Of a stretch of 64,000 nucleotides of DNA, positions 4,781 to 53,063 are shown one piece after another. Below the pieces are notes generated by a model that saw only the letters and a program-made list of their open reading frames with translations, was not told the DNA's origin and searched no databases. The position numbers and the translations under genes are program-made. Numbering within the stretch: the stretch's first letter is position 1; every line of letters starts with the position of its first letter. This DNA comes from Escherichia coli (GTDB taxonomy: Bacteria > Pseudomonadota > Gammaproteobacteria > Enterobacterales > Enterobacteriaceae): assembly GCF_003790525.1 (NCBI RefSeq), contig NZ_CP033635.1, one strand, 5' to 3'.

Positions 4781-7700
4781 CAGGCGCTCTCCTTATCTTG
4801 TGCAAAGAACGCCCAGGCCACTTTGTAGTCGTCTTCGCGATCCGGCTTGATAAACGGTGCCTGCCAGGTGACGGTACGGCGCTCGCCTTCGTCGCTGCGG
4901 GTATAGTCATCAAAGGTAACGCTGACGGTACCGGTTTGCAGATGTTTGACATCATCCCAGCCGATGGCTTGATCGGTGCAGTCACCGCCGGTCCAGTCCG
5001 GGCTGTCGACGTTAAAGACAAAGCCGTTTTTCAGGTCAGCTTTACGCGCGGTACGAGGCAAGCCAACGCCCACCAGCCCTTTGCTTGGGGTAAAGATAAT
5101 GCGACCGTTTTGATCGTACCAGGTGTCCGCTTCGTACTGGCGCATCACCGGGAACTGAATACGGTAGATGGCGAGTAGTTCTTCGAGGGTTAGCCCCAGC
5201 GCCTGCGCCACCAGCACGTCGATTTCCACCAGCGCCTGACGGCGGCTGTAGTCGGAGCGTAAGGCGCAGTTACGCTGCCATTCTGGGGTCAGATTGGTGA
5301 AGAAATCCTGGGGGAGCTGTGGGAGATCGCGGCTCCAATATTGTATTTTAAATTCTGAGGAATAAATGGAACACCACAATTTTTTATAATGCTCTGTTAT
5401 ACTAACCAAAGCCATCGACCTTGCATGTAAAGAGGCTCTAAACTTCTCATTACTTAATAATGGAAGTTGATTAACTAATGACTGATTCGCATGCCCCATG
5501 CCAGTACACTTGACTCTATAATCTACGACAATGGACAAAGACATCGAAAAGAAATCAAGTAAATCATAGTCATGTTTAAAAATAGTGCTTAGACACGTAT
5601 TAATATGAGAAATACCGGGAGGTATTATAGTTGCGATGAAAGTTCGTTCAGAAGTTGAACCTATCATTTCCCGATTAACAAATCTATAGCCATTAGTCAC
5701 AGGAAAGACATTACCATCCCAAGAAACTGTCGGAATTCGATTTAGAAAATCGGAATACTCGCAATTAGGAATATAATTAACCCTAGGCATATAATTATCA
5801 GGAATAGTCATCAAATCAATGGAGTCATAGTCACTATTTAATTTACATAAAGTCCGTGGCGTTTTGTAATAAGCATTCCCCACAAAGAAATGTGGTCCAG
5901 ATAATATCCATTGTGAAATTCCAGAGGGGAATTCCGTTTTCCTTTTAGTTGTACCATCTCTTTGAGCAAATGTTTCATCAAACATCACTGTAGAATAATA
6001 ATTATTTTTTATTGAAGATAGTTTTTTTGATTTAACATCAAATTTACGTAAAACTTCCAATAATTGTACTGTATGTAAAGCTGGAAGCCTTGCGTGCAGT
6101 GCAGGTGTTGAATTATCATCAAATATCCCCGCAAACAAACGTAACTCATCAATAGTAATTGTTAATACTCTTGATTTATGGGGTGATATATTCCAATTTA
6201 TTTTCAGTTTATCCCCATTGTAAGATTCTTCCTTGATACCAGGAATTTCCCCTTGATTATCATGCAAAATACTTGAATCTATTGTATACACAGAGAACAA
6301 ATTTGACATGTGTGTAAATGAAGGCGATTCTTGCAATGGACCATAAATATTAATACTAAATGTTGTTGCATGATGAACATCGGGAAAAAGCCCTAATTCA
6401 TTTTGAAATTGATAATGGTCACGCAAACGGCAGTAAATTTTGGCACGAAGTTCCCCCGCCTTGCTATCATCATAAACTCCATCAGGGTGCAATAACCCTG
6501 AAACACCATGTTCAGAAATAAGTCGCCATGAGACTGGTAAAAAACATTTATATAGATTTGTTTTTTGCCCTAACAAGCATGAAAAATTTTGCTGACTATT
6601 TAGATAGTTCTGTAATCCAACGGCAGATTCAAACTCACTTCGCCATGCATCTTCTAATCCATAGACTCGTGCAAAAGATTCTTCTCGGAGAGAAGATATA
6701 TTGGCAGCGCTAAGATTGTGCAGTACAAGCTCAGGTTTATAATCTCCCAATATTCCGCGTTCTTCCCATACAACTTTTAGCCACGGCGGGTTTCCGAGCA
6801 TCAGGTCAAAACCGCCGCGCTCGGCAAACAGGTCGCAGAACTCCAGATCCCAGTGGAAGAAACGGTACTGCTTTCTCAGGGCATCGACAATCGCCAGACG
6901 CGGCAAATGACGGAACAACACCTCGGTTTTCAGACGACCTGCGCCGGAAAACAGTGAAGACTCTTCTCGCAGCAGACCTTCTTCGGCAAACAGATCGCCG
7001 GTGGTGTGCTCCGCAACTTCAGTGACTTTTTCCGTGATTACAATCCCGTCGAGCAGGGTTTCAATCTCAAACAACCAGGTGCCGCGATCCGGTAGCTCAT
7101 CGGCTTTGTCGATCGGCCAGAACCACAGCGCGCACCAGTAGTCCATCACCCAACGCAGCTTCTGGTAGGCACTGTTATCTTCAAGACGACCACTGAAGGT
7201 TTCATCTTTACTGCTCAGCGAAGAACGCGTCTGCTCGCTGTTTTCTGCCGGCCACACCGGGTAGCTGTCGGCGGTTTTCAGACGTTCTGCTTTAAGTTGC
7301 TGGCGATAGGTGTTCCACAGAGCTTCCACCTTTTCGCTGATACGCTGCACATCAGCAATCTCATGCCCGGCAAAGCTTTTAATAAACTCTTTGCGCCAGC
7401 TGTCCAGGGCTTTGAAGTCATCCGGATAACGCTGCTTAACGGTTTTATCGCTGTAGTTAGCCATACCGCCGTCGGGCAGCAGGAAGTGAAAAATCTGCGT
7501 CTCTTCACGCGGCGTGTTCATCGCCAGTTCGACCGGCTCGCTGTTAAGCCAGCTCGGATCTTTGGCTTTTTTGTAGGTCAGTTCACTCTTGTTGAACACC
7601 TGACGGCGCGCGCCCACCAGCGAGTTACCGCAGTGCAGCTGGTAACCAAACCACGGTACAAAGGCATCGCCACTGATGGCGTTCAGCCACAGCGACACTT

Positions 7701-42179: not shown

Positions 42180-44513
42180 TCAGGCTGTTGCAGGGTCGTC
42201 ACATTTTGGCAGCCAGTCGCCGTAGCTTTCCTCTTTCAGCGTCAGGTTGGTCTGTATCCCCTGTTTGGTATGGCGCTTCTCGTAATTCAGTCCGTATTCC
42301 TTCAGCATCACCGGCAGCCCCAGCCCGAACATTTTCAGACTGAGTACATTCCGGTAGCCGTTTGCCTCCATGTAGGCCAGATAGGCGTGATAGAGGTATT
42401 TACGGTAATTGCGCGGGATGATACTGGCGTTCCCCATATACATGCCGCTGGTCTGCGGCAGGGTTTCCAGATAGCCGATAAAATCAAACGTCGGGTCGGC
42501 ATCCCGTTTGATGTTCAGTGCCTCGTCTGAGTTCTGCTGGGACTGAAGCAGTGACCGGGCGAGCATCGGGTCGCTGAACTTCTGCATCAGGTGACGCACG
42601 ATGACCGCCAGCTCGCGGGTGATTTTGTCCTTAAGCTGCGGGTCGCGCTCCTGCGGGGCTATCTGTTCCGGGAAGTGAATAATCACCCGCCGGCGTGACA
42701 CGCCGCCGCTGCGGTCGGTGAAGCGCATCGGGTTATTGTTCACGGCCAGAATTACCGCCGGGATATGCGTGGAGTATGCATCCCGGTATTTCGGGTCAAC
42801 GGACACCGCATCGCCGCCGGTGATGGCCTTGAGTCCGGCACCGTCGCCGCTCCATTTTTCCTGGTCCGGCAGGCGTATCAGTGAGAAGCCAGTTAACGCG
42901 GCACGTTCACGCGGGGATTCCAGCGTCTCGATGGTGGCCGACGTGGCGTTATCCTCCCCGGCCAGCAGGGTGGCTATTTCGGCCATGATACTTTTGCCGC
43001 TGCCGCCGGGACCGGTCACCTCCAGAAAGAGCTGCCAGTCGTAGCGGTTTGCCAGCACCATAAACAGTGCGGCCAGAATCACGTCGCGTTTTTCCGCACG
43101 GCCACCGGCGGCACGGTCAAGCCAGCACCAGAACGCGGGGGCGTGGGTCTCCAGCGTTTCACCGTCCACCGGCGGGGTGAAATCCACATCGCACAGGGTG
43201 CGCATCCAGTGTGACGGACTGTGCGGGTGGAACGTGCCGTTCTGCGTGTCGAGCACGCCGTTACGAAAGCCAATCAGGCGGCGGGAGGGGGCTTCCTGCT
43301 GCGGAATAATCAGCTTCAGGGTGTCCACCACGGAGGCCACCTTCCCGGAGGAGAACGGCGCGCGCAGACGCTGAAACAGCCCGGCCACATCCCGGGCAAA
43401 GTCCTGTGGTGGCAGCACCTTCCAGACACCATTTTCATAACGGGACAGAAGCTGGCCGTTGGCATCGACCGCGAGCGCCTCGCCGTAATGCTCATAGATA
43501 CGCATGGCCTTTTCGCTGGTACTCATGGCGGAAAACTCCGCTTCACTCATGGTGTCGAACGGGCTTTCAGCCGGTGGCCGGATGGCATCGTAAATGGCCT
43601 TACGGGTGGCCTCCCCGCCGTACTGCGTGAAGGCATCATTCCAGTCACCGAAGACCGGTGGCAGGGCAACAACACCTTCACACGCATCTGCGGCTGCGGC
43701 GGCTTTTTTCTGGCCATCACCGCTGAGGTCACGGTCAGCGGCAAGGACAATCTGACAGGCGGGGTGCTTCTGCCGGGCAAGGCTGGCCAGAGAAAGGAGG
43801 TTCACGGAAGAAAGCGCCACCATCACCGTTTCACCGGTCAGGTGATGCACGGTAAGTGCGGTCGCGTATCCCTCCGCTATCCACAGACGTTTTCCGGCCT
43901 GATTCTGTCCTTCAAGGATGTGACAGGTGCCCCTGACCTGTCCGCCTTTCAGGGTGCGCTTACGGCCGTCAGCACTGATTAACTGAAGGTTAACCAGTTC
44001 GCCGCTGTCGTCATACAGTGGCACCACAAGGTCACCGGCGCGCCAGCTCACGCCACCGGCTCTGTGTGTGCCGGTCAGCATCCGGCATTCCCGGCCGGGA
44101 AAGCCCTTGCGGGTCAGGTAGGCGTTACCGGTTCCGGGACGGGTTTTCGCCATCAGGGTTTGTGCCAGTGCGGCGGCGTTCTTCCGGGCAGCGTCTGTTT
44201 CAGCACCGGCGGCAGCCGTCACTGCCGGGTCAGCCGGGGGCAGGCTGCCGGTCACGGCAGCCACCTTTGTGGCCGCGTCGGACGGGGAGACACCAAACAC
44301 CTTTTCAACCAGTTTCAGGCCGTCACCGGCACCACACTGATTGCAGTACCAGGTGCCGCGCCCCTCCCTGTCATCAAAACGGAAGCGGTCACTCCCGCCA
44401 CAGACCGGACAGGGCTGATGACGGTTCTTCAGCACCTGAATCCCCAGCGCCGGGAGAATACGCGGCCAGTGGCCGAGCGCATGGCTGACGGTGGCGGTTA
44501 CGTTCATTTTCAT
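42180..44513 (-). CDS. alpha: P4 alpha-like primase-helicase
   Basis: 777 aa ORF with an N-terminal zinc-binding primase motif (CPVCGGSDRF...YCNQCGAGDG), next to the TGTTCACC iteron clusters. Confidence 0.8.
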   Translation of the reverse strand: MKMNVTATVSHALGHWPRILPALGIQVLKNRHQPCPVCGGSDRFRFDDREGRGTWYCNQCGAGDGLKLVEKVFGVSPSDAATKVAAVTGSLPPADPAVTAAAGAETDAARKNAAALAQTLMAKTRPGTGNAYLTRKGFPGRECRMLTGTHRAGGVSWRAGDLVVPLYDDSGELVNLQLISADGRKRTLKGGQVRGTCHILEGQNQAGKRLWIAEGYATALTVHHLTGETVMVALSSVNLLSLASLARQKHPACQIVLAADRDLSGDGQKKAAAAADACEGVVALPPVFGDWNDAFTQYGGEATRKAIYDAIRPPAESPFDTMSEAEFSAMSTSEKAMRIYEHYGEALAVDANGQLLSRYENGVWKVLPPQDFARDVAGLFQRLRAPFSSGKVASVVDTLKLIIPQQEAPSRRLIGFRNGVLDTQNGTFHPHSPSHWMRTLCDVDFTPPVDGETLETHAPAFWCWLDRAAGGRAEKRDVILAALFMVLANRYDWQLFLEVTGPGGSGKSIMAEIATLLAGEDNATSATIETLESPRERAALTGFSLIRLPDQEKWSGDGAGLKAITGGDAVSVDPKYRDAYSTHIPAVILAVNNNPMRFTDRSGGVSRRRVIIHFPEQIAPQERDPQLKDKITRELAVIVRHLMQKFSDPMLARSLLQSQQNSDEALNIKRDADPTFDFIGYLETLPQTSGMYMGNASIIPRNYRKYLYHAYLAYMEANGYRNVLSLKMFGLGLPVMLKEYGLNYEKRHTKQGIQTNLTLKEESYGDWLPKCDDPATA

Positions 44514-44527
44514 GGTGTTGTTCTCCT

Positions 44528-44848
44528 TCAGTGCAGTACCGGCGCTTTTATGTGACGGGCACAGAGTTCATCCATCACAACCAGCCCGAGAAAGGACAGC
44601 GACGGCGCGGCCTTCAGGGGGCCGGATTCCATTAAATCTTCCAGCAGGGCACAGGCTATCTGACGCCCTTTTTCCTCACCGTGCTGGCGCAGATAAAAGC
44701 CTTCCAGCTCAGCGGCGATGGCCGCCTCCAGTGACTCAAGGGTGAGATGCGGGTAGCGGTGCTGACGTTCGCACACGGTCAGCCAGGCACAGGCGACAGC
44801 GCGACGGTAAAGGGCAGCGCGTAAGACGGGCGGTAAGGGTGTTTTCAT
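44528..44848 (-). CDS. Small P4-type protein (orf106/Cnr-like), function uncertain
   Basis: 106 aa ORF immediately upstream of alpha in the same operon. Confidence 0.45.
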
Positions 44849-44983
44849 TTGTTTTCCTCCCTGTGACAGATGACTGCATTCCGTGCCGGTTGCATTAACT
44901 GATAAGGCATATCTGCGTCTCCTGAAGACGTGCGTATCCCTGCGCGAATACGCACATTTAATTTTTCGGGTGTCGTTTTTTAA

Positions 44984-45439
44984 TTACAGATAATTGCGGT
45001 AACTGTTATCCGGGGTGATTTCCGGGTCAGGCTCCGTGCGGGGAATTTCCCGCCATTCCCGCGCCACCGGTGCCGCCCGGCTGACCGGAACAGTGTCCTG
45101 CGGGTAAATATCCAGATATTTCTCCCGCCATTTCTGTAATTCCGGGTCTCCGGCCATTTCTTTCAGTACCGCATGCCGGTTTACGGGGCTGCGTTTGAAC
45201 AGGTCAGGACGGTCACAGGTAAATTCCCGCAGAAAACGCCCCAGCGGGATGTCTGTGGTGCGCCCGTCGGCGAGGATACGCACAAGGATACTGAATTTAC
45301 GGCGGTACGGGTTCCAGACAATGTCCGGGCAGCGGTACGGCATTTCCCACGGAATACCGTCTTCCAGAATGCCGACCACGGCCACATCGGGAAAACCGGC
45401 AGAACGGTAAATCTCACCGGGCTGGGGAAAATCAAACAT
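44984..45439 (-). CDS. P4 orf151-like protein
   Basis: 151 aa ORF in the epsilon-alpha operon position. Confidence 0.45.
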   Translation of the reverse strand: MFDFPQPGEIYRSAGFPDVAVVGILEDGIPWEMPYRCPDIVWNPYRRKFSILVRILADGRTTDIPLGRFLREFTCDRPDLFKRSPVNRHAVLKEMAGDPELQKWREKYLDIYPQDTVPVSRAAPVAREWREIPRTEPDPEITPDNSYRNYL

Positions 45440-45719
45440 GCGTCCTGTCTCCCCGGTCTTTCTGCTGGGCGAGAAAATCGCGGCACAGGCCTTTGGCTTT
45501 CAGCTCATTCAGCACAAAATCAATATCTTCATTCAGGTAGCTGAAAATATGCGGAATGTAGAGCTGATGCAGGCCGGAGAGTTCACGGTGAATCAAATCA
45601 CCCCCAACAAACTGGGATACGGCGCTGGCGCGGTTGAGCTTATGGTAAGCCTCAATGCTGAGGTGTTCACGGGCGTCATGACGCGCTGAGACGGTCTGAG
45701 GGGCTTTTTTATTACGCAC
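45432..45719 (-). CDS. P4 epsilon-like small protein (putative GTG start)
   Basis: 95-codon frame beginning at a GTG at 45719..45717 ([20 protein letters not shown]...). The longer track ORF 45432-45959 has an implausible N-terminal extension. Confidence 0.35.
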
Positions 45720-46298
45720 GGGACACCTCCACCACCGGCAGACGGGCAGCAAGGGAGAGCACATAGTCACGGACAAGGGAACGGCGGGCGCTGCGTTCAT
45801 CACCGGCGACGGTGCGAAGCATGCAGATACGGGGATGACGGTCTGCGCGACGGACAGCCGCAAACACAAAGACAAATTCAGGGTGTGAGGGGGTAAGGGT
45901 TGTAGCCATAAGGCAGCCTCCTTCGAGTAGCAAATAACTGCTATCGCCGGAGTTCTCACGCTCGATGGCGATAGCCCAGACGGGGGTGAGAATACCGGCC
46001 TCGAAGAATACCGGCCAGCCCGGAGGCTGCCCCGCCTGAGCTACCATTGACTCAGTGGCATAACATGCGATTGCGAACAGGATAATACCTGCACGGCAAA
46101 CCACACGCCACACCATAATCTGGCGCTCTGTGGCGTTGATTGCGACACAAAAAAAGACGCATGGCGCGTCATATGTCGCCTTCGAGTTACACGGGTTCTC
46201 ACGCCCGGCTGCCGATTTTGCGGCAACGGAAAGACTATATCCGCAAATGCCGGAAAAAGGCAAGCCAGAAAAAGGGAGTTTTTGCAGAGCGGGCATCA

Positions 46299-46565
46299 TC
46301 ATGCGTCATACCCCCGTTTGCGTCCGGCAATGCGGCCGGCCATCCATGCGGTGACTTCAGAGTGCAGCCAGGCCACATTTTTACCGCCAAGACTCACCTG
46401 CGGCGGAAATTCCCCCTTACGGATGAGTTCGTAGATGGTCGAGCGTGACAGGCCGCACAGGTGCATCACTTCCGGAAGACGCAAAAAACGCTCCTGTGTG
46501 ATGTCCGGCTGCGGCATCAGTGGCGTCACAGGGGCGGGAGACGGGGAAGAAAAAACAGCTTGCAT
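46299..46565 (-). CDS. vis: Vis/AlpA-family small DNA-binding regulator
   Basis: 88 aa ORF with an AlpA-type HTH ([26 protein letters not shown]), at the head of the leftward operon. Confidence 0.6.
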
Positions 46566-46844
46566 CGGGCTACCTCGTTAATGTCCATACAGCACCGGAT
46601 AAGTCTGTCCGGCTTCGGGTAGCGCTTTATTTTGTGAATATTTTCAGCAGACGCAACAGGGGGGATTTGTTCCGGCAGCCTTACAATGCTTGTGTGTTTT
46701 TTGTTCATCTCCACTTAAAGTCATTTAAAGCCACTTAAAGCAATTCGTAATTTTTATAGTGAAATACAAATCGTTTTTTCTTATTCATTCCCGGCGAATT
46801 AATAAAAACAAACAGTAGTAAACAGCACAAAAAGCCCATCAACG

Positions 46845-46948
46845 GGTGAACAGTGGTGAACAGACGGTGAACAGTCATTACTGCGATTGTTCACCCTTTA
46901 ACTTACTGTATTACTTATCTTTTTTCTTATGGCGAACAGAGGTGAACA
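46845..46948. repeat. ori-like iteron cluster (GGTGAACAG repeats)
   Basis: Three tandem GGTGAACAG copies at 46845-46874 with 1-2 bp spacers, an inverted TGTTCACC at 46888-46895, and further copies at 46932-46948. Confidence 0.5.
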
Positions 46949-47117
46949 GTAAAATATAAAAAAACAAACAGTAAGACGGTTTTTCCTGCGACCTTTTCCT
47001 GGCTTGCCGGTGTGAGGATGAGTCTCCTGTGTCAGGGCTGGCACATCTGCAATGCGTCGTGTTGTTGTCCGGTGTACGTCACAATTTTCTTAACCTGAAG
47101 TGACGAGGAGCCGGAAA

Positions 47118-47852
47118 ATGTCTGACAACACCATCCCTGAATATCTGCAACCCGCGCTGGCACAACTGGAAAAGGCCAGAGCCGCCCATCTTGAGAACGC
47201 CCGCCTGATGGATGAGACCGTCACGGCCATTGAACGGGCAGAGCAGGAAAAAAATGCGCTGGCGCAGGCCGACGGAAACGACGCTGACGACTGGCGCACG
47301 GCCTTTCGTGCAGCCGGTGGTGTCCTGAGCGACGAGCTGAAACAGCGCCACATTGAGCGCGTGGCACGCCGGGAGCTGGTACAGGAATATGACAATCTGG
47401 CCGTGGTGCTGAATTTTGAACGCGAACGCCTGAAAGGGGCGTGTGACAGCACGGCCACCGCCTACCGGAAGGCACATCATCACCTGCTGAGTCTGTATGC
47501 AGAGCATGAGCTGGAACACGCCCTGAATGAAACCTGTGAGGCGCTTGTCCGGGCAATGCATCTGAGCATTCTGGTACAGGAAAATCCGCTCGCCAACACC
47601 ACCGGGCATCAGGGCTACGTCGCACCCGATAAAGCTGTCATGCAGCAGGTGAAATCATCGCTGGAACAGAAAATAAAACAGATGCAAATCAGCCTCACCG
47701 GCGAGCCGGTTCTCCGGCTGACCGGACTGTCAGCGGCAACACTCCCGCACATGGATTATGAGGTGGCAGGCACACCGGCACAGCGCAAGGTGTGGCAGGA
47801 CAAAATAGACCAGCAGGGAGCAGTGCTTAAGGCCAGAGGACTGCTGTCATGA
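47118..47852 (+). CDS. sid: P4 Sid-like capsid size determination protein
   Basis: 244 aa from the internal ATG (MSDNTIPEYLQPALAQLEKARAAHLENARLMDE...). Stop overlaps the delta start (ATGA). Confidence 0.75.
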   Translation: MSDNTIPEYLQPALAQLEKARAAHLENARLMDETVTAIERAEQEKNALAQADGNDADDWRTAFRAAGGVLSDELKQRHIERVARRELVQEYDNLAVVLNFERERLKGACDSTATAYRKAHHHLLSLYAEHELEHALNETCEALVRAMHLSILVQENPLANTTGHQGYVAPDKAVMQQVKSSLEQKIKQMQISLTGEPVLRLTGLSAATLPHMDYEVAGTPAQRKVWQDKIDQQGAVLKARGLLS

Positions 47853-48349
47853 TTTACTGCCCGTCGTGTGGACATGTTGCTCACACCCGTCGCGCACATT
47901 TCATGGACGATGGCACCAAGATAATGATTGCACAGTGCCGGAATATTTATTGCTCTGCGACATTTGAAGCGAGTGAAAGCTTTTTCTCTGACAGTAAAGA
48001 TTCAGGAATGGAATACATTTCAGGCAAACAGAGATACCGCGATTCACTGACGTCAGCCTCCGGCAGTATGAAACGCCCGAAAAGAATGCTTGTTACCGGA
48101 TATTGTTGTCGGAGATGTAAAGGCCTTGCACTGTCAAGAACATCGCGGCGTCTGTCTCAGGAAGTCACCGAGCGTTTTTATGTGTGCACGGATCCGGGCT
48201 GTGGTCTGGTGTTTAAAACGCTTCAGACCATCAACCGCTTCATTGTCCGCCCGGTCACACCGGACGAACTGGCAGAAAGCCTGCATGAAAAACAGGAACT
48301 GCCGCCAGTACGGTTAAAAACACAATCATATTCGCTGCGTCTGGAATGA
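47849..48349 (+). CDS. delta: P4 Delta-like late-gene activator (tandem Ogr-type zinc fingers)
   Basis: 166 aa ORF with two zinc-finger modules (MIYCPSCGHVAH...CRNIYC and CCRRCKGLAL...CTDPGC). Confidence 0.8.
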   Translation: MIYCPSCGHVAHTRRAHFMDDGTKIMIAQCRNIYCSATFEASESFFSDSKDSGMEYISGKQRYRDSLTSASGSMKRPKRMLVTGYCCRRCKGLALSRTSRRLSQEVTERFYVCTDPGCGLVFKTLQTINRFIVRPVTPDELAESLHEKQELPPVRLKTQSYSLRLE

Positions 48350-48422
48350 GGGCTGCCGGTTAACACCGGCCGTCGCCGCACACCGTATTTTTATTCTTCA
48401 GCATGATGAGAAAGAGATAACG

Positions 48423-48995
48423 ATGGAAAGCACAGCCTTACAGCAGGCCTTTGACACCTGCCAGAATAACAAAGCAGCATGGCTGCAACGCAAAAATGAG
48501 CTGGCTGCGGCCGAACAGGAATATCTGCGGCTTCAGTCCGGGGAAGGCAGAAACGTCAGTCGCCTTGACGAATTACGCAATATTATCGAAGTCAGAAAAT
48601 GGCAGGTGAATCAGGCCGCCGGTCGTTATATTCGTTCGCATGAAGCCGTTCAGCACATCAGCATCCGCGACCGGCTGAATGATTTTATGCAGCAGCACGG
48701 CACAGCACTGGCGGCGGCACTGGCACCGGAGCTGATGGGCTACAGTGAGCTGACGGCCATTGCCCGAAACTGTGCCATACAGCGTGCCACAGATGCCCTG
48801 CGTGAAGCCCTTCTGTCCTGGCTTGCGAAGGGTGAAAAAATTAATTATTCCGCACAGGATAGCGACATTTTAACGACCATCGGATTCAGGCCTGACGTGG
48901 CTTCGGTGGATGACAGCCGTGAAAAATTCACCCCTGCGCAGAACATGATTTTTTCGCGTAAAAGTGCGCAACTGGCATCACGTCAGTCTGTGTAA
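48423..48995 (+). CDS. psu: P4 Psu-like polarity suppression protein
   Basis: 190 aa ORF, third gene of the sid-delta-psu late operon. Confidence 0.75.
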   Translation: MESTALQQAFDTCQNNKAAWLQRKNELAAAEQEYLRLQSGEGRNVSRLDELRNIIEVRKWQVNQAAGRYIRSHEAVQHISIRDRLNDFMQQHGTALAAALAPELMGYSELTAIARNCAIQRATDALREALLSWLAKGEKINYSAQDSDILTTIGFRPDVASVDDSREKFTPAQNMIFSRKSAQLASRQSV

Positions 48996-49368
48996 AATTC
49001 CCCGAAAATCCGCCCGTTTTTACTGAAAAAAGCCATGCATCGATAAGGTGCATGGCTTTGCATGCGTTTCCCTGCCTCATTTTCTGCAAACCGCGCCATT
49101 CCCGGCGCGGTCTGAGCGTGTCAGTGAAACTGCATTAAAACCGCCCCGCAAAGCGGGCGGGCGAGGCGGGGAAAGCACTGCGCGCATGATATAAAAGAGT
49201 ATTAAGAATTTTACAGAAACAGCTAATACAGACGCTGAAGTAAAATCATTGAGACCATTCGTGATTTGATGCAAAAAATTGCACAACATAAGCTCCTATG
49301 GTTCATAGTAATACTATTAAACCTATCTTTTCGTTGGTATATTACCCATTTTGTAATGGAGAATTGAA

Positions 49369-51501
49369 ATGCTTTCTACTCAGGATATAAACGGTTTTTT
49401 TAATGCTGTTGACTCTCTCAAAAGGTTTAAACGAGCAGAAATAAGGGACAACAAAGATAAACCACTTATTGATTCACTTTACACAGATCTATTGCCAAAC
49501 AATCACGTCTTCAAAATGTGCTACGGGGAAAACACTACATTTTTAATTGGAAGAAAAGGCACAGGAAAATCCACAATAATTCTTAAACTTGAAAGTGAGT
49601 ACAGAAAAGAATCTTCATACCTCCCATGCTATATAGATACAAAAACAGTATTCGAAAGTGTTAGAGGTGAGTATCAAAAAATAGACTACCTAAAAGGGAA
49701 GATACCTGAAGAGCATCTAGAAAAATATTTAGTCGAGCGTGCATTCATTAAAAACATCTTGAAATCAATCGGTGACGAATTGAATATTCGAGCAGAAAGC
49801 ATATTCTCAAAACTAGCAGGGATTGTTAATGCAAGCAAAAAACAAGCGGTAAAAGCAAAAATAACAAAACTACTTTTAATGGTGGACAATAACCAAATAA
49901 TAAAAGAAATTGAAATACCCGTAATAACAGAAGTAAATACTAAACTTACTAAGGCGAACGAATCAGAAAATGGAACTACCCAAAACTATAACTCTGAGCT
50001 AACTGTAAAAATCGGAACATCACAACATGAAGGTGGTGGAAAAATAGGAGCGGTAAAAGGAATCACCTCAAGACAGAAAAACAATGACGCTTGGGAAAAG
50101 AGTTTCTCTACAGCCCTTCTAAAGGTTTTTCAAATCACATCAGTAATTGAAGAAATTAAAATCATATTAAGAGAGCTAGGAGTAAAAAAGCTTGTAATAT
50201 TTTTAGACGATTTCTCTGAAGTTGAAGAGAAGACGCTAAAAAACTTCGTCGATGTTGTACTTGCTCCGCTAAATAACTGGGCTAATGATTTCATTTGTTT
50301 TAAAGTCGCTGCCTACCCAAGTCGCATATATTATGGCGACATTGATGTTGGCAAAATAGATGTGGTAAATTTAGATTTTTATAATTTATATTCTAATTAT
50401 GATAAATCTACGATGGAATCCTTATCAGCTGACTTCACCAAGAGACTTTTAAATCAAAGGCTTAATCAGTTTTGCACATTGAAGTTTGAAGATTATTTTG
50501 ATACATCTTCAGCTACTCCAGAAGAGTACTATGATCTTATATTTAAAGTATCCATGAATGTCCCTAGAATTATAGGATACATTCTTTATTACTGCCATCA
50601 AACCAATGTATCTCTTGGCAGAAAAATAAATAAAGGCTCAATCGAGAAAGCAGCTCAGACTTATTATGAGCAAGTTGTATCTAAGTTTTTCGATATTGCC
50701 ACGCATAGTCTGATGTCTTTCAGTGAAAAAGTTTCTGAACTTCAGCAAAAAGAGATTCTAAATCTCTTCGTTCAGAAATTAAAAACGATTAAGCGACAAA
50801 TAATAACAAATGAACTAACTGGCACAATTTACAATAGAGACAGAACAAATCCTTATTGTAGTCATTTTTATTTTCAACCTAATCTTGAACATTTTCTGCG
50901 TACATTGGAGCTTAATTTCTTCATTACCAAATATAATGAATTAGTAAATAAAGACGGAAACAAGGTCTCGATATATGGAATAAATTATGGATTAGCTCGA
51001 AGTGAAAACCTCAAATGGGGAAAACCTGAAGGTAATCAGTTCCGTAGTTATTTCGTAGAAAGACCATTTGATTTCAACAAAGATATCGAAGATTTCTTAA
51101 GAGAATCGAAAAAAATCGTATGTCTTAATAGCTCTTGTGATAAAACCTATCCATATGAAGAACTTGCATTTCTTGAATATAATAAAATGAGATGTATTGA
51201 ATGCCAGTCGCCTGTTGAAGTAAGATCGTTTTCTGAAAGTATCAGTTCTGAAATATCTAAAATTGACAACGCTAAACTTTTACCAAAATTAGAATTAATG
51301 ATATTACATGAACTGAATAAGGCAGACGATCATCTCCTAGCTCGAGACATTGCTGAGGAACTAGACGCTTCATCACAATTAATTGCCAAACGGGCTGAAA
51401 AATTAGACAGAAAAGGTCTTGTTTTTAGAGATAAAAGTGATGCATTAATTAAGTATTCAATAACAAATAAAGCAGTAGAAGGTTATTTCTATGATGACTA
51501 A
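49369..51501 (+). CDS. Uncharacterised P-loop NTPase with C-terminal zinc ribbon and winged-helix-like domain; candidate anti-phage defence gene in the P4 psu-int hotspot
   Basis: 710 aa ORF, conspicuously AT-rich compared with flanking P4-like genes. Walker A LIGRKGTGKST, Walker B-like LVIFLDDFSEVEE, Cys4 cluster CLNSSCDKTYPYEELAFLEYNKMRCIECQSP, and a C-terminal wHTH-like segment. Confidence 0.6.
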   Translation: MLSTQDINGFFNAVDSLKRFKRAEIRDNKDKPLIDSLYTDLLPNNHVFKMCYGENTTFLIGRKGTGKSTIILKLESEYRKESSYLPCYIDTKTVFESVRGEYQKIDYLKGKIPEEHLEKYLVERAFIKNILKSIGDELNIRAESIFSKLAGIVNASKKQAVKAKITKLLLMVDNNQIIKEIEIPVITEVNTKLTKANESENGTTQNYNSELTVKIGTSQHEGGGKIGAVKGITSRQKNNDAWEKSFSTALLKVFQITSVIEEIKIILRELGVKKLVIFLDDFSEVEEKTLKNFVDVVLAPLNNWANDFICFKVAAYPSRIYYGDIDVGKIDVVNLDFYNLYSNYDKSTMESLSADFTKRLLNQRLNQFCTLKFEDYFDTSSATPEEYYDLIFKVSMNVPRIIGYILYYCHQTNVSLGRKINKGSIEKAAQTYYEQVVSKFFDIATHSLMSFSEKVSELQQKEILNLFVQKLKTIKRQIITNELTGTIYNRDRTNPYCSHFYFQPNLEHFLRTLELNFFITKYNELVNKDGNKVSIYGINYGLARSENLKWGKPEGNQFRSYFVERPFDFNKDIEDFLRESKKIVCLNSSCDKTYPYEELAFLEYNKMRCIECQSPVEVRSFSESISSEISKIDNAKLLPKLELMILHELNKADDHLLARDIAEELDASSQLIAKRAEKLDRKGLVFRDKSDALIKYSITNKAVEGYFYDD

Positions 51502-51561
51502 ATAGAAACTAACAATGAAAAGCTCAACGCTGATTCTAGGGCGTTGAGCTACTTAATAATT

Positions 51562-52815
51562 TTAGATCCTAGCAAAATCATAGGCCGTAATATTTTGATA
51601 TCGATTAATATCTAGATAGTCAGCCCACCATTGCATCATCAAACGACGCTCTTCTAAATGCTCTGAAGTATGAATATAAGCTGCGCGTACATTGTTACGT
51701 TCTGAATGGCTCAATTGACGTTCTATCGCATCATCACTCCATAGTCCCGATTCCCCCAACGCCCCGCGTGCCATAGTCCTAAAACCATGGCCACATACTT
51801 CTGTTTTTGTGTCATATCCCATTACACGCAATGCATTGTTTACCGTATTTTCACTCATAACCTTAGTTGCGTCATGATCGCCCGGGAAAAGAAAGTCTCT
51901 ATCACCACTAATCTGCTTAAGCTGTTCTAACAATATAATCGCCTGTCGGCTAAGCGGAACTATATGCTCCTCTTTCATTTTCATGCCACGATACGAGTAA
52001 CGTACGCCTTTAATTTCTTCTCGTTTAGCAGGAATACGCCAAGTAGCGTTATCAAAATCAAATTCTTTCCAACGAGCAAAACGTAATTCACTTGAACGAA
52101 CAAAAGTTAGTAAAGAAAGCTCAACCGCAATTTTCGTCATCATACGCCCACGATATACATCAAGACGTGCCAAGAACTCATGGAAACGATGTGATGGTAG
52201 CGCCGGGTAGTGCCGCGTTTTCGCCGTAGATAACGCACCGGCCATATCAATTGCAGGATTTGAGTCTACATAATCGTTCTGAACAGCATAGCGCATAATA
52301 GCAGTGACACGTTGCTGAAGACGCTGCGCTACATCATGCTTACCACTGGCATCAACTTTTTTTATCGGTGCCAAAAGGTGACTAGTTTTAAGCTGTCGAA
52401 TATCAGACGAGCCAATATAGGGAAAGATATAAAGCTCTAGATAGCGAAGAACCCGTGCCCGATGTTCCTCACTCCAACGCTTATTGCTGGCATGCCATTC
52501 ACGAGCAATAGTTTCAAAATTATAAGCACCAGCATTAACTGCTTGGGCCTCTTTCTGTACTGCTTTTGGATCTATACCTTGCACCAGCAACTTTTTGGCT
52601 TCATCCCTTCTAGCTCTAGCTTCAGCAAGCGTCACAGTCGGCCAAACACCAAAAGCAAGACGATCCTCTTTTTTGTCGGAAGGTCGTCTATATTTCATAC
52701 GCCAATATTTAGAGCCTTTGACAGAAACCTCGAGGTACAAACCGCCACCATCGGCCATTTTATAGGTTTTATCTTTTGGCTTTGCGGTCTCGACCTGTCT
52801 GGCGTTGAGCTTCAT
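51562..52815 (-). CDS. int: P4-type tyrosine integrase (IntB-like), intact
   Basis: MKLNARQVETAKPKDKTYKMADGGGLYLEV... with a complete C-terminal catalytic region (...HGFRTMARGAL..., ...HSERNNVRAAYIHT). Begins about 165 bp from the leuX 3' end, in the same orientation. Confidence 0.85.
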   Translation of the reverse strand: MKLNARQVETAKPKDKTYKMADGGGLYLEVSVKGSKYWRMKYRRPSDKKEDRLAFGVWPTVTLAEARARRDEAKKLLVQGIDPKAVQKEAQAVNAGAYNFETIAREWHASNKRWSEEHRARVLRYLELYIFPYIGSSDIRQLKTSHLLAPIKKVDASGKHDVAQRLQQRVTAIMRYAVQNDYVDSNPAIDMAGALSTAKTRHYPALPSHRFHEFLARLDVYRGRMMTKIAVELSLLTFVRSSELRFARWKEFDFDNATWRIPAKREEIKGVRYSYRGMKMKEEHIVPLSRQAIILLEQLKQISGDRDFLFPGDHDATKVMSENTVNNALRVMGYDTKTEVCGHGFRTMARGALGESGLWSDDAIERQLSHSERNNVRAAYIHTSEHLEERRLMMQWWADYLDINRYQNITAYDFARI

Positions 52816-52978
52816 TTGGGGGCACATCCCTAATCGAAGTTAAGATGCCCCCAATTATGCCCCCAATGACATCCGGATTTCAACGTACAACCTCGGACGA
52901 CTCGGGACGTTAAAATCACTGCAAGCATTGATTTTTAAGGAATTATTGGACTTTCTCGGATGGTCTAGGAAGTGCTTA

Positions 52979-53063
52979 TGGTGCCGAAGGCCGGACTCGA
53001 ACCGGCACGTATTTCTACGGTTGATTTTGAATCAACTGCGTCTACCGATTTCGCCACTTCGGC
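52979..53063 (-). tRNA. leuX: tRNA-Leu (anticodon CAA), leuX
   Basis: Reverse complement reads GCCGAAGTGGCGAAATCGGTAGACGCAGTTGATTCAAAATCAACCGTAGAAATACGTGCCGGTTCGAGTCCGGCCTTCGGCACCA, an 85-nt class II tRNA with CAA anticodon and encoded CCA. Confidence 0.9.

Follow-up and report, generated by a model that had tools for sequence, protein, structure and literature searches.

The gene at positions 49369–51501 (forward strand, ATG start) of a 64,000-nucleotide stretch of Escherichia coli contig NZ_CP033635.1 (GCF_003790525.1), hereafter the window, to whose positions the genomic coordinates refer unless another record is named, is almost certainly DS-39, a single-gene system of anti-phage defence that is mobile and forms the cargo of the cos–int hotspot in a P4-like satellite. 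Its 710-amino-acid product very probably unites five parts in one polypeptide: besides the AAA+ ATPase, which is Orc1/Cdc6-like and has a variable insertion of ~180 residues, these are a lid, two winged helices, one of the Cdc6 type and the other MarR-like, and, between the two, a Cys4 zinc ribbon. The gene is already known: a 2022 catalogue of the P4 hotspot lists it, and its validation, under the name DS-39, followed in 2025–2026.

As a discovery DS-39 is ordinary; its effector-less, initiator-like architecture and its methylase-linked TIR relatives make it a reasonable mechanistic target. The interest lies in a plating drop of up to 10^6.7-fold without a recognisable enzymatic effector, in a replication-initiator fold, and in a distribution over many bacterial phyla and some archaea. 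The leads for a mechanism are the TIR-fused, methylase-linked relatives, the hypervariable insert of the ATPase, and the recurrence of the family in cargo slots of P4, P2, and plasmids.

Identity of the gene and published evidence for defence

The translation of the open reading frame (ORF) is identical to the annotated RefSeq coding sequence, WP_042346724.1, with which the DNA also agrees at 100%, and the locus is 100% identical across 2701 bases to E. coli Ec42. In addition, the ORF holds exact copies of two sequence fragments printed in the tables of DeWeirdt et al. (DefensePredictor, Science 2026, PMC13092281).

In Table S1 of Rousset et al. 2022 (Cell Host Microbe, PMC9122126), WP_042346724 is entered as a single 'hypothetical' occupant of the P4 hotspot with three occurrences, and no sign was found that it was among the systems tested there. 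In Table S6 of PMC13092281, the gene AAA5 is WP_042346724.1 and is recorded as defensive = TRUE, with the DS_name DS-39, a DefensePredictor log-odds of 9.54, and the category 'Predicted novel defense gene'. AAA5 was challenged with 24 phages as a single gene with its native promoter in MG1655. The log10 reductions in plating given in Table S7 are 6.70 for Bas1, 4.46 for Bas3 (with small plaques), 3.0 for Candy, 1.49 for SECphi18, 1.40 for Bas67, and 0.70 for T7 (again with small plaques).

These records bear on an earlier note, made from the letters of the window, which proposed that the gene is a defence cargo and perhaps undescribed. The single-gene anti-phage cargo of the psu–int hotspot is borne out by Tables S6 and S7, whereas the novelty is refuted by the 2022 listing and by the DS-39 entry. 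A real defence gene was recognised from raw sequence alone, though it had already been published.

The main text of DeWeirdt et al. has no individual discussion of DS-39, and neither mutants nor a mechanism were found. Nor did the passages of text and supplement that were consulted mention the location in the P4 hotspot, the TIR-fused relatives, or the winged helix at the C terminus. A full-text search found the accession WP_042346724.1 in the main text of no paper (it is present in the supplementary tables of two), and a search of the full-text literature returned no later paper pairing 'DS-39' with DefensePredictor.

Domain organization and comparison with known families

Conservation was scored on an alignment of 59 homologues with identities to the query down to 24%. 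The AlphaFold2 model computed from the same alignment had a mean predicted local distance difference test score (pLDDT) of 85.3 and a predicted template modelling score of 0.84, and the pLDDT fell below 50 at residues 201–236 only. Domain borders were read from the secondary structure of this model.

N-terminal helices (residues 1–52) are followed by the first part of the AAA+ base, with the Walker A motif (residues 53–90), a helical insertion (residues ~91–270; 49639–50178), the tip of which, residues 201–236, is predicted to be disordered, and the remainder of the base, with the Walker B motif (residues 271–345). The lid (residues 346–445) and a connecting helix (residues 446–495) then lead to the first winged helix, of the Cdc6/Orc1 type (residues ~496–560; 50854–51048), the Cys4 zinc ribbon (residues 585–612; 51121–51204), and the second winged helix-turn-helix, which is MarR-like (residues ~640–706; 51286–51486), all encoded on the forward strand. 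The HHpred table of PMC13092281 agrees with these domains, with an AAA+ ATPase at residues 53–540 (matched to Cdc6, 7MCA_I, at a probability of 0.985) and a zinc finger spanning 583–615.

The motifs that the earlier note had picked out were found in the sequence and proved to be conserved across the homologues. For the Walker A motif, or P-loop, GRKGTGKST (residues 61–69; 49549–49575, forward strand), residues G61, G64, G66, K67, and S68 of GRKGTGKS (61–68) are invariant. For the Walker B motif and the residues that follow it, LVIFLDDFSE (residues 275–284; 50191–50220, forward strand), in which VIFLDD (276–281) precedes FSE, residues D280, D281, S283, and E284 are invariant. For the zinc ribbon, the four cysteines are C585, C590, C609, and C612, of which the outer two are invariant and the inner two are present in at least 90% of the homologues.

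Two arginines of the lid, R364 and R400, the latter in an NxPR motif, are also invariant. They are candidates for the arginine finger and the sensor-2 arginine of the Orc1/Cdc6 clade, with R400 as the candidate for sensor 2, and the 91–270 insertion, which lies between Walker A and Walker B, is a candidate counterpart of the initiator-specific helical insertion of that clade. The invariant Walker A and B residues, together with R364 and R400, point to a predicted working ATPase cycle. Conservation was 0.58–0.63 in the AAA+ core, 0.54 in the first winged helix, and lowest, 0.32, in the insertion, falling to 0.28 at its tip, the length of which varies from 28 to 56 residues among the homologues.

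Among the features of the Orc1/Cdc6 clade, those present in DS-39 are a Walker A motif of the form GxxxxGK[ST], a Walker B motif of the form hhhhD[DE], and the base, helical lid, and winged helix of the Cdc6 fold. Foldseek searches with the model returned Cdc6 (E = 2e-5), RdrA of RADAR (3.7e-4), and BrxC (7e-4), as well as ORC4/5, and the Pfam ORC-CDC6-like profile matched 5 of the 59 members at E <= 0.001. Judging from the model, DS-39 would work most like an Orc1/Cdc6-type AAA+ protein, and its nearest counterparts among defence proteins would be BrxC and RdrA. Sequence identity to the Orc1/Cdc6 initiators of known structure (PDB 2qby, 1fnn, and 7mca) is 12–13%, and DS-39 departs from these by its zinc ribbon, its second winged helix, and the variable stretch of ~180 residues inserted after Walker A and before Walker B.

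A role as the replication initiator of the carrier element, to which the fold had pointed, was considered and rejected: P4 has alpha, a 6-kb plasmid that carries a homologue has its own Rep, and the DS-39 gene is a rare variable cargo. With replication proteins already encoded by the carriers, and with the gene being a variable cargo, DS-39 is probably not their initiator. BrxC/PglY of BREX and RdrA of RADAR work in systems of several genes, where their partners are methyltransferase/PglZ or adenosine deaminase proteins, whereas DS-39 stands alone, and the PADLOC models for BrxC and RdrA did not match it.

Sequence searches of PADLOC, PHROGs, and the PDB gave no match to the ATPase part. In PADLOC-DB 2.0.0, the main (ATPase) part had no system match, and the C-terminal winged helix had weak matches (CARF3/Csa3/CasR, E of at least 2e-4). 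The earlier note had been unable to match the domain order to a named family, which is understandable, since no PADLOC 2.0.0 model covers the ATPase.

Membership in the Sll1717 family of P-loop ATPases (NCBIfam NF047389) was rejected at 37.1 bits against a curated cut-off of 75. Similarity of the ATPase region to this family is weak and recurrent, with three relatives of DS-39 scoring 42–45 bits, and indicates a remote relationship. The PADLOC model mad8 (MADS) matched 7 of the 10 DS-39 family members tested at E = 2e-6 to 6e-3, again a remote relationship and not membership; the MADS preprint contains no usable annotation of the function of mad8. The layout of STAND/NLR-like proteins (Avs, bNACHT), with an NB-ARC/NACHT module, repeat sensors (TPR, LRR, WD40), and an effector, was not found in DS-39.

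Reve (Moura de Sousa et al., bioRxiv 2026), a KAP/ORC-like P-loop ATPase encoded by a single gene, occupies the same P4 hotspot as DS-39. It differs in its length of 587 amino acids, its Walker A motif GEWGVGKT, and its lack of a zinc ribbon. Identity of DS-39 with Reve was rejected, since no significant similarity emerged from BLASTP against the translated sequence of Dataset E1 (best E = 0.036, over 81 residues).

The C-terminal winged helix, also claimed in the earlier note, was confirmed by a Pfam MarR_2 match at residues 641–688 (E = 1.8e-4) and is retained throughout the family. MarR proteins are dimers of ~140–150 amino acids with one winged helix and N- and C-terminal dimerisation helices. 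The likeness of DS-39 to them is confined to its C-terminal ~65 residues, and the matched PDB chains have 131–161 residues, against the 710 amino acids and the ATPase of DS-39. Membership in the MarR family was therefore rejected, as MarR_2 covers 641–688 only and the remainder is an AAA+ ATPase. The product name given by RefSeq, 'MarR family transcriptional regulator', covers less than 10% of DS-39, is misleading, and should be replaced.

The same name raises the alternative that DS-39 is mainly a transcription factor that regulates host or satellite genes, e.g. those for phage receptors, and that protection is indirect. The MarR_2 match, the structural matches to MarR regulators, and an imperfect palindrome at 49297–49325, upstream of the gene, are in keeping with such a role. 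However, the MarR-like part amounts to ~65 of 710 residues, the dimerisation architecture of MarR is absent, and the invariant catalytic set of the AAA+ domain would be needless for a simple repressor. Furthermore, the upstream regions are not conserved among homologues, the family moves as isolated cargo among unrelated elements, and protection was obtained in MG1655 without the satellite, against phages of different families. These observations make the regulatory explanation very unlikely. The palindrome itself was rejected as an autoregulatory operator, as the upstream regions of six homologues had no motif in common.

Proposed mode of action and its alternatives

DS-39 may act as an ATP-dependent DNA-binding switch, a reading that we advance as plausible, if short of probable. 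During infection, the winged helices and the zinc ribbon would recognise phage DNA or an intermediate of its replication or packaging. The AAA+ interfaces would then drive assembly into an initiator-like or filament-like nucleoprotein complex on the DNA, in a mode that can be likened to initiators, TnsC, or MuB on DNA. This complex would directly block replication, expression, or packaging of the phage DNA without a separate enzymatic effector. Three of the modules belong to types for which binding of nucleic acids is common, which suggests sensing of DNA. The prime candidate for the determinant of specificity is the hypervariable insertion.

A C-terminal TIR domain is present in two distant relatives, P0227 (828 amino acids) and P0270 (810 amino acids, from a metagenome-assembled genome (MAG) of Candidatus Aureabacteria), which share 42% identity. 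For P0227, the domain was matched by NCBIfam retron-TIR (E = 5e-14 over residues 673–798), PADLOC PDC-S66 (E = 2.7e-15), and PADLOC ThsB (E = 5e-6), and precomputed Pfam TIR_2 matches are recorded for both proteins. A search seeded with P0227 gave identities of ~24–32% between the TIR subclade and other members of the family.

Directly upstream of both genes, on the same strand and separated by gaps of 8 bp and 27 bp, lies a gene for a C5 cytosine DNA methylase (extract L019, 6977–10433, and extract L020, 1796–6992). At one of the two loci, the neighbourhood further includes an integrase and a gene for a SacI-type restriction endonuclease. These results show that an immune protein can use the common chassis for sensing or switching and that the TIR subclade is genetically coupled to DNA methylation, an arrangement that would be expected if the chassis reads DNA. 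The methylase and the AAA+/TIR protein may constitute an undescribed two-gene system.

A more specific version of the switch makes DS-39 an effector-less 'pseudo-initiator', i.e. an Orc1/Cdc6-type ATPase that reads a feature of the incoming phage DNA, possibly its modification state, and neutralises the phage by assembling on the DNA; we regard this version as rather doubtful. Modification is brought in because a cytosine methylase gene immediately precedes the gene of each TIR-fused cousin. If the version were true, DS-39 would provide immunity by DNA occupancy in a stand-alone bacterial defence protein. To our knowledge, no such protein has been demonstrated to confer immunity by occupancy instead of by cleavage, depletion of NAD, or damage to the membrane.

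Several observations weigh against the DNA-binding switch. Strong protection is limited to a few phages, a pattern that is explained equally well by generic sensing of DNA and by a specific trigger, possibly a phage protein that the hypervariable insert reads. The TIR-fused relatives present the chassis as a sensor that needs an effector, which implies that the TIR-less form may also need an effector encoded elsewhere. The link to methylases is confined to the diverged TIR subclade, with none in the contexts of the close homologues. The C-terminal winged helix is net acidic (K+R 0.17, D+E 0.21) and the first winged helix only weakly basic, and a comparison of the upstream regions of six homologues revealed neither a common motif nor a conserved operator. 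Finally, DNA binding, ATP hydrolysis, and oligomerisation are themselves predicted features.

An alternative is abortive infection, in which DS-39 senses a phage protein or DNA and the activated oligomer acts on the host, e.g. by clamping the chromosome or the origin like a rogue initiator, so that the cell stops growing or dies before phage release. Small plaques were recorded for Bas3 and T7 in Table S7 of PMC13092281. Abortive infection is a common mode of single-gene P-loop defence proteins, and the TIR-fused relatives would be expected to act through NAD depletion, which is typically abortive. Of the eight complete E. coli genomes in which the gene occurs, three have a copy truncated by IS1; a fitness cost could be behind this, although insertion of IS1 into AT-rich DNA may simply be neutral. 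The 10^6.7-fold drop in plating of Bas1 has no power to separate direct from abortive defence, and profile and fold searches recovered no recognisable toxic domain. On this evidence, abortive infection appears to be an improbable explanation.

None of the profile or fold searches revealed a nuclease, NADase, protease, kinase, or transmembrane domain in DS-39, yet the gene is active by itself in MG1655. This combination would be accounted for if DS-39 were a sensor or adaptor that recruits or activates a housekeeping enzyme of E. coli, such as a nuclease or a protease, with the 710-residue protein being the sensing half only. That some relatives carry a TIR effector added to the same chassis, and that the structural relatives BrxC and RdrA act with partner proteins in BREX and RADAR, is consistent with a division of labour of this sort. 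Conversely, the family extends over at least six phyla and archaea at a constant length of ~700 amino acids with no conserved neighbour, so that the host partner would have to be universally conserved. We therefore consider recruitment of a host effector unlikely.

Distribution, genomic contexts, and the host satellite

A search of cluster representatives returned 436 at E <= 1e-3, of which 149 were at E <= 1e-30, and a word-indexed search returned 849 matches. The family has a length of ~700 amino acids throughout and spans at least six phyla plus archaea. Its members are found in Gammaproteobacteria (Yersinia, Cronobacter, Serratia, Vibrio cholerae, Shewanella, Aeromonas, and Pseudoalteromonas), Bacteroidota (Sphingobacterium and Polaribacter), Cyanobacteria (Leptolyngbya), Firmicutes (Bacillus, Brevibacillus, Listeria, Clostridium, and Blautia), Planctomycetes, Actinobacteria, Leptospira, and Campylobacterota. 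Distant archaeal members occur in Methanosarcina and in one MAG labelled Lokiarchaeota.

Eleven homologue contexts were inspected by eye, and no neighbouring gene was conserved across them, which fits the published sufficiency of the single gene. The slots in which the gene occurs on its own are unrelated to one another and are of mobile or defence type. A hidden partner gene or RNA in the hotspot was rejected, as an Rfam search of 48996–51561 gave no RNA match and the eleven contexts shared no neighbour.

For the homologue of Yersinia enterocolitica (74% identity), the gene is located at the end of a P4-like satellite, downstream of ogr/delta and a cos-like sequence. For the homologue in a P2-like prophage (72% identity; extracts L015 and L016, 10001–12130), the gene lies between a tail-fibre gene and the tail-tube/sheath cluster, which is a type of slot where P2 carries accessory genes. 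The family is thus common to P4-like and P2-like elements, and an identity of 72% signifies no recent exchange; a recent preprint reports that defence genes are almost never exchanged between P4 and P2. For the homologue on an Enterobacter 6-kb MOBP mobilizable plasmid (33% identity; NZ_CP058193.1, 2830–4986), the start overlaps the end of rep by 4 bp and the gene lies beside ccdAB; one third of the length of this plasmid is the DS-39 homologue.

The Vibrio cholerae homologue (~60% identity; extract L001, 8001–10139) adjoins a filamentous prophage with Rep_trans and Zot genes and an insertion sequence. The Sphingobacterium homologue (55% identity; extract L008, 10231–13299) adjoins a thymidylate-synthase/5-hmdU-kinase (HMUDK_hel)/NMAD cluster and a STAND-type ATPase, and the gene content of this cluster resembles that of DS-4, a validated system of the DefensePredictor paper (PMC13092281). 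Two STAND/AAA-type ATPase genes are located further along the same locus. The remaining neighbours recorded are a Gp49/HTH toxin–antitoxin pair in Leptolyngbya (48% identity), an HNH protein in Serratia (63% identity), and a DUF4917 protein in Pseudoalteromonas (61% identity).

In the 5426 complete E. coli genomes, five full-length and three truncated copies of the DS-39 gene were found, compared with ~2250 occurrences of the psu flank. The truncated copies, in three of the eight genomes with the gene, are of the IS1 type. In NZ_CP059929.1 (extract L017, 4288–6137), IS1A removed the 5′ half of the gene and the remaining satellite up to fimB, and in NZ_CP017220.1 (extract L018, 5470–7518), IS1B removed the 3′ end of the gene and part of the integrase. 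The third, in NZ_OY757949.1, is known from its match pattern alone, which is like that of NZ_CP059929.1. These truncations could be neutral, with IS1 simply active in AT-rich DNA, or could indicate that the gene carries a fitness cost.

The element in the window is identified as a P4-like satellite by its alpha primase-helicase (777 amino acids; 42180–44513, reverse strand), C4 antisense RNA (45964–46051, 74 bits), isrK, c4-a1b1 targets, and tRNA-Leu(CAA) (52979–53063, reverse strand), the satellite being integrated next to the tRNA gene and the integrase lying beside it. The P4 immunity RNAs at 45964–46240 are intact, with 74 bits for C4, 67 bits for isrK, and 50 bits for the a1/b1 target element. 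The satellite therefore appears to be competent for regulation.

The left conserved flank of the hotspot is psu (48423–48995, forward strand), which RefSeq annotates as 'phage polarity suppression protein' at the identical locus, and the right conserved flank is the convergent P4-type tyrosine integrase gene (51562–52827, reverse strand; ORF and RefSeq). The earlier note had placed the 710-residue ORF between the end of psu and the end of this integrase gene, and its coordinates were exact. The gene has the position of P4 psu–int hotspot cargo, from psu/cos to the integrase, and the content of this interval varies between elements. The AT-richness that the earlier note had judged by eye was confirmed by a GC content of 0.327 in the DS-39 gene, compared with 0.562 in the P4 backbone (42180–49178) and 0.438 in the integrase gene. 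Two short antisense ORFs, of 67 and 54 amino acids, are also present in the hotspot.

Between psu and the cargo, the backbone contains a 19-mer, GGCGAGGCGGGGAAAGCAC, at 49160–49178 (forward strand), which we take to be the P2/P4 cohesive-end site (cos); it is an exact single match, with 0 expected in shuffled sequences. More than 2000 E. coli records match positions 1–303 of the query only, and similarity to the backbone stops near 49202. The AT-rich upstream DNA specific to the cargo, presumably with the native promoter, is therefore ~49203–49368 (forward strand), where no strong sigma-70 match was found. Since cos lies between psu and the cargo, the variable hotspot starts past cos, at ~49203, and not straight after psu. 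Of the interval 48996–49368, which had been put forward as the native upstream region, the later part, from ~49203, is accordingly specific to the cargo, whereas the earlier part, including cos, belongs to the P4 backbone. A cos-like sequence is also present 5′ of the Yersinia homologue (extract L005, ~7900).

Fragments of the family were also recorded. The 7.1-kb filamentous Vibrio phage KSF-1phi (NC_006294.1) contains at 6535–6873 a fragment of a DS-39 homologue that corresponds to residues 10–122 at 71% identity and extends across ORFs XII and XIII, and this record may include host DNA that was captured or imprecisely excised. In AFDB50, several fragments from Klebsiella pneumoniae (188–535 residues, 69–76% identity) are annotated as 'KAP NTPase domain-containing', 'MarR family', or 'Uncharacterized', which suggests split or frameshifted copies of the DS-39 type in some Klebsiella assemblies.

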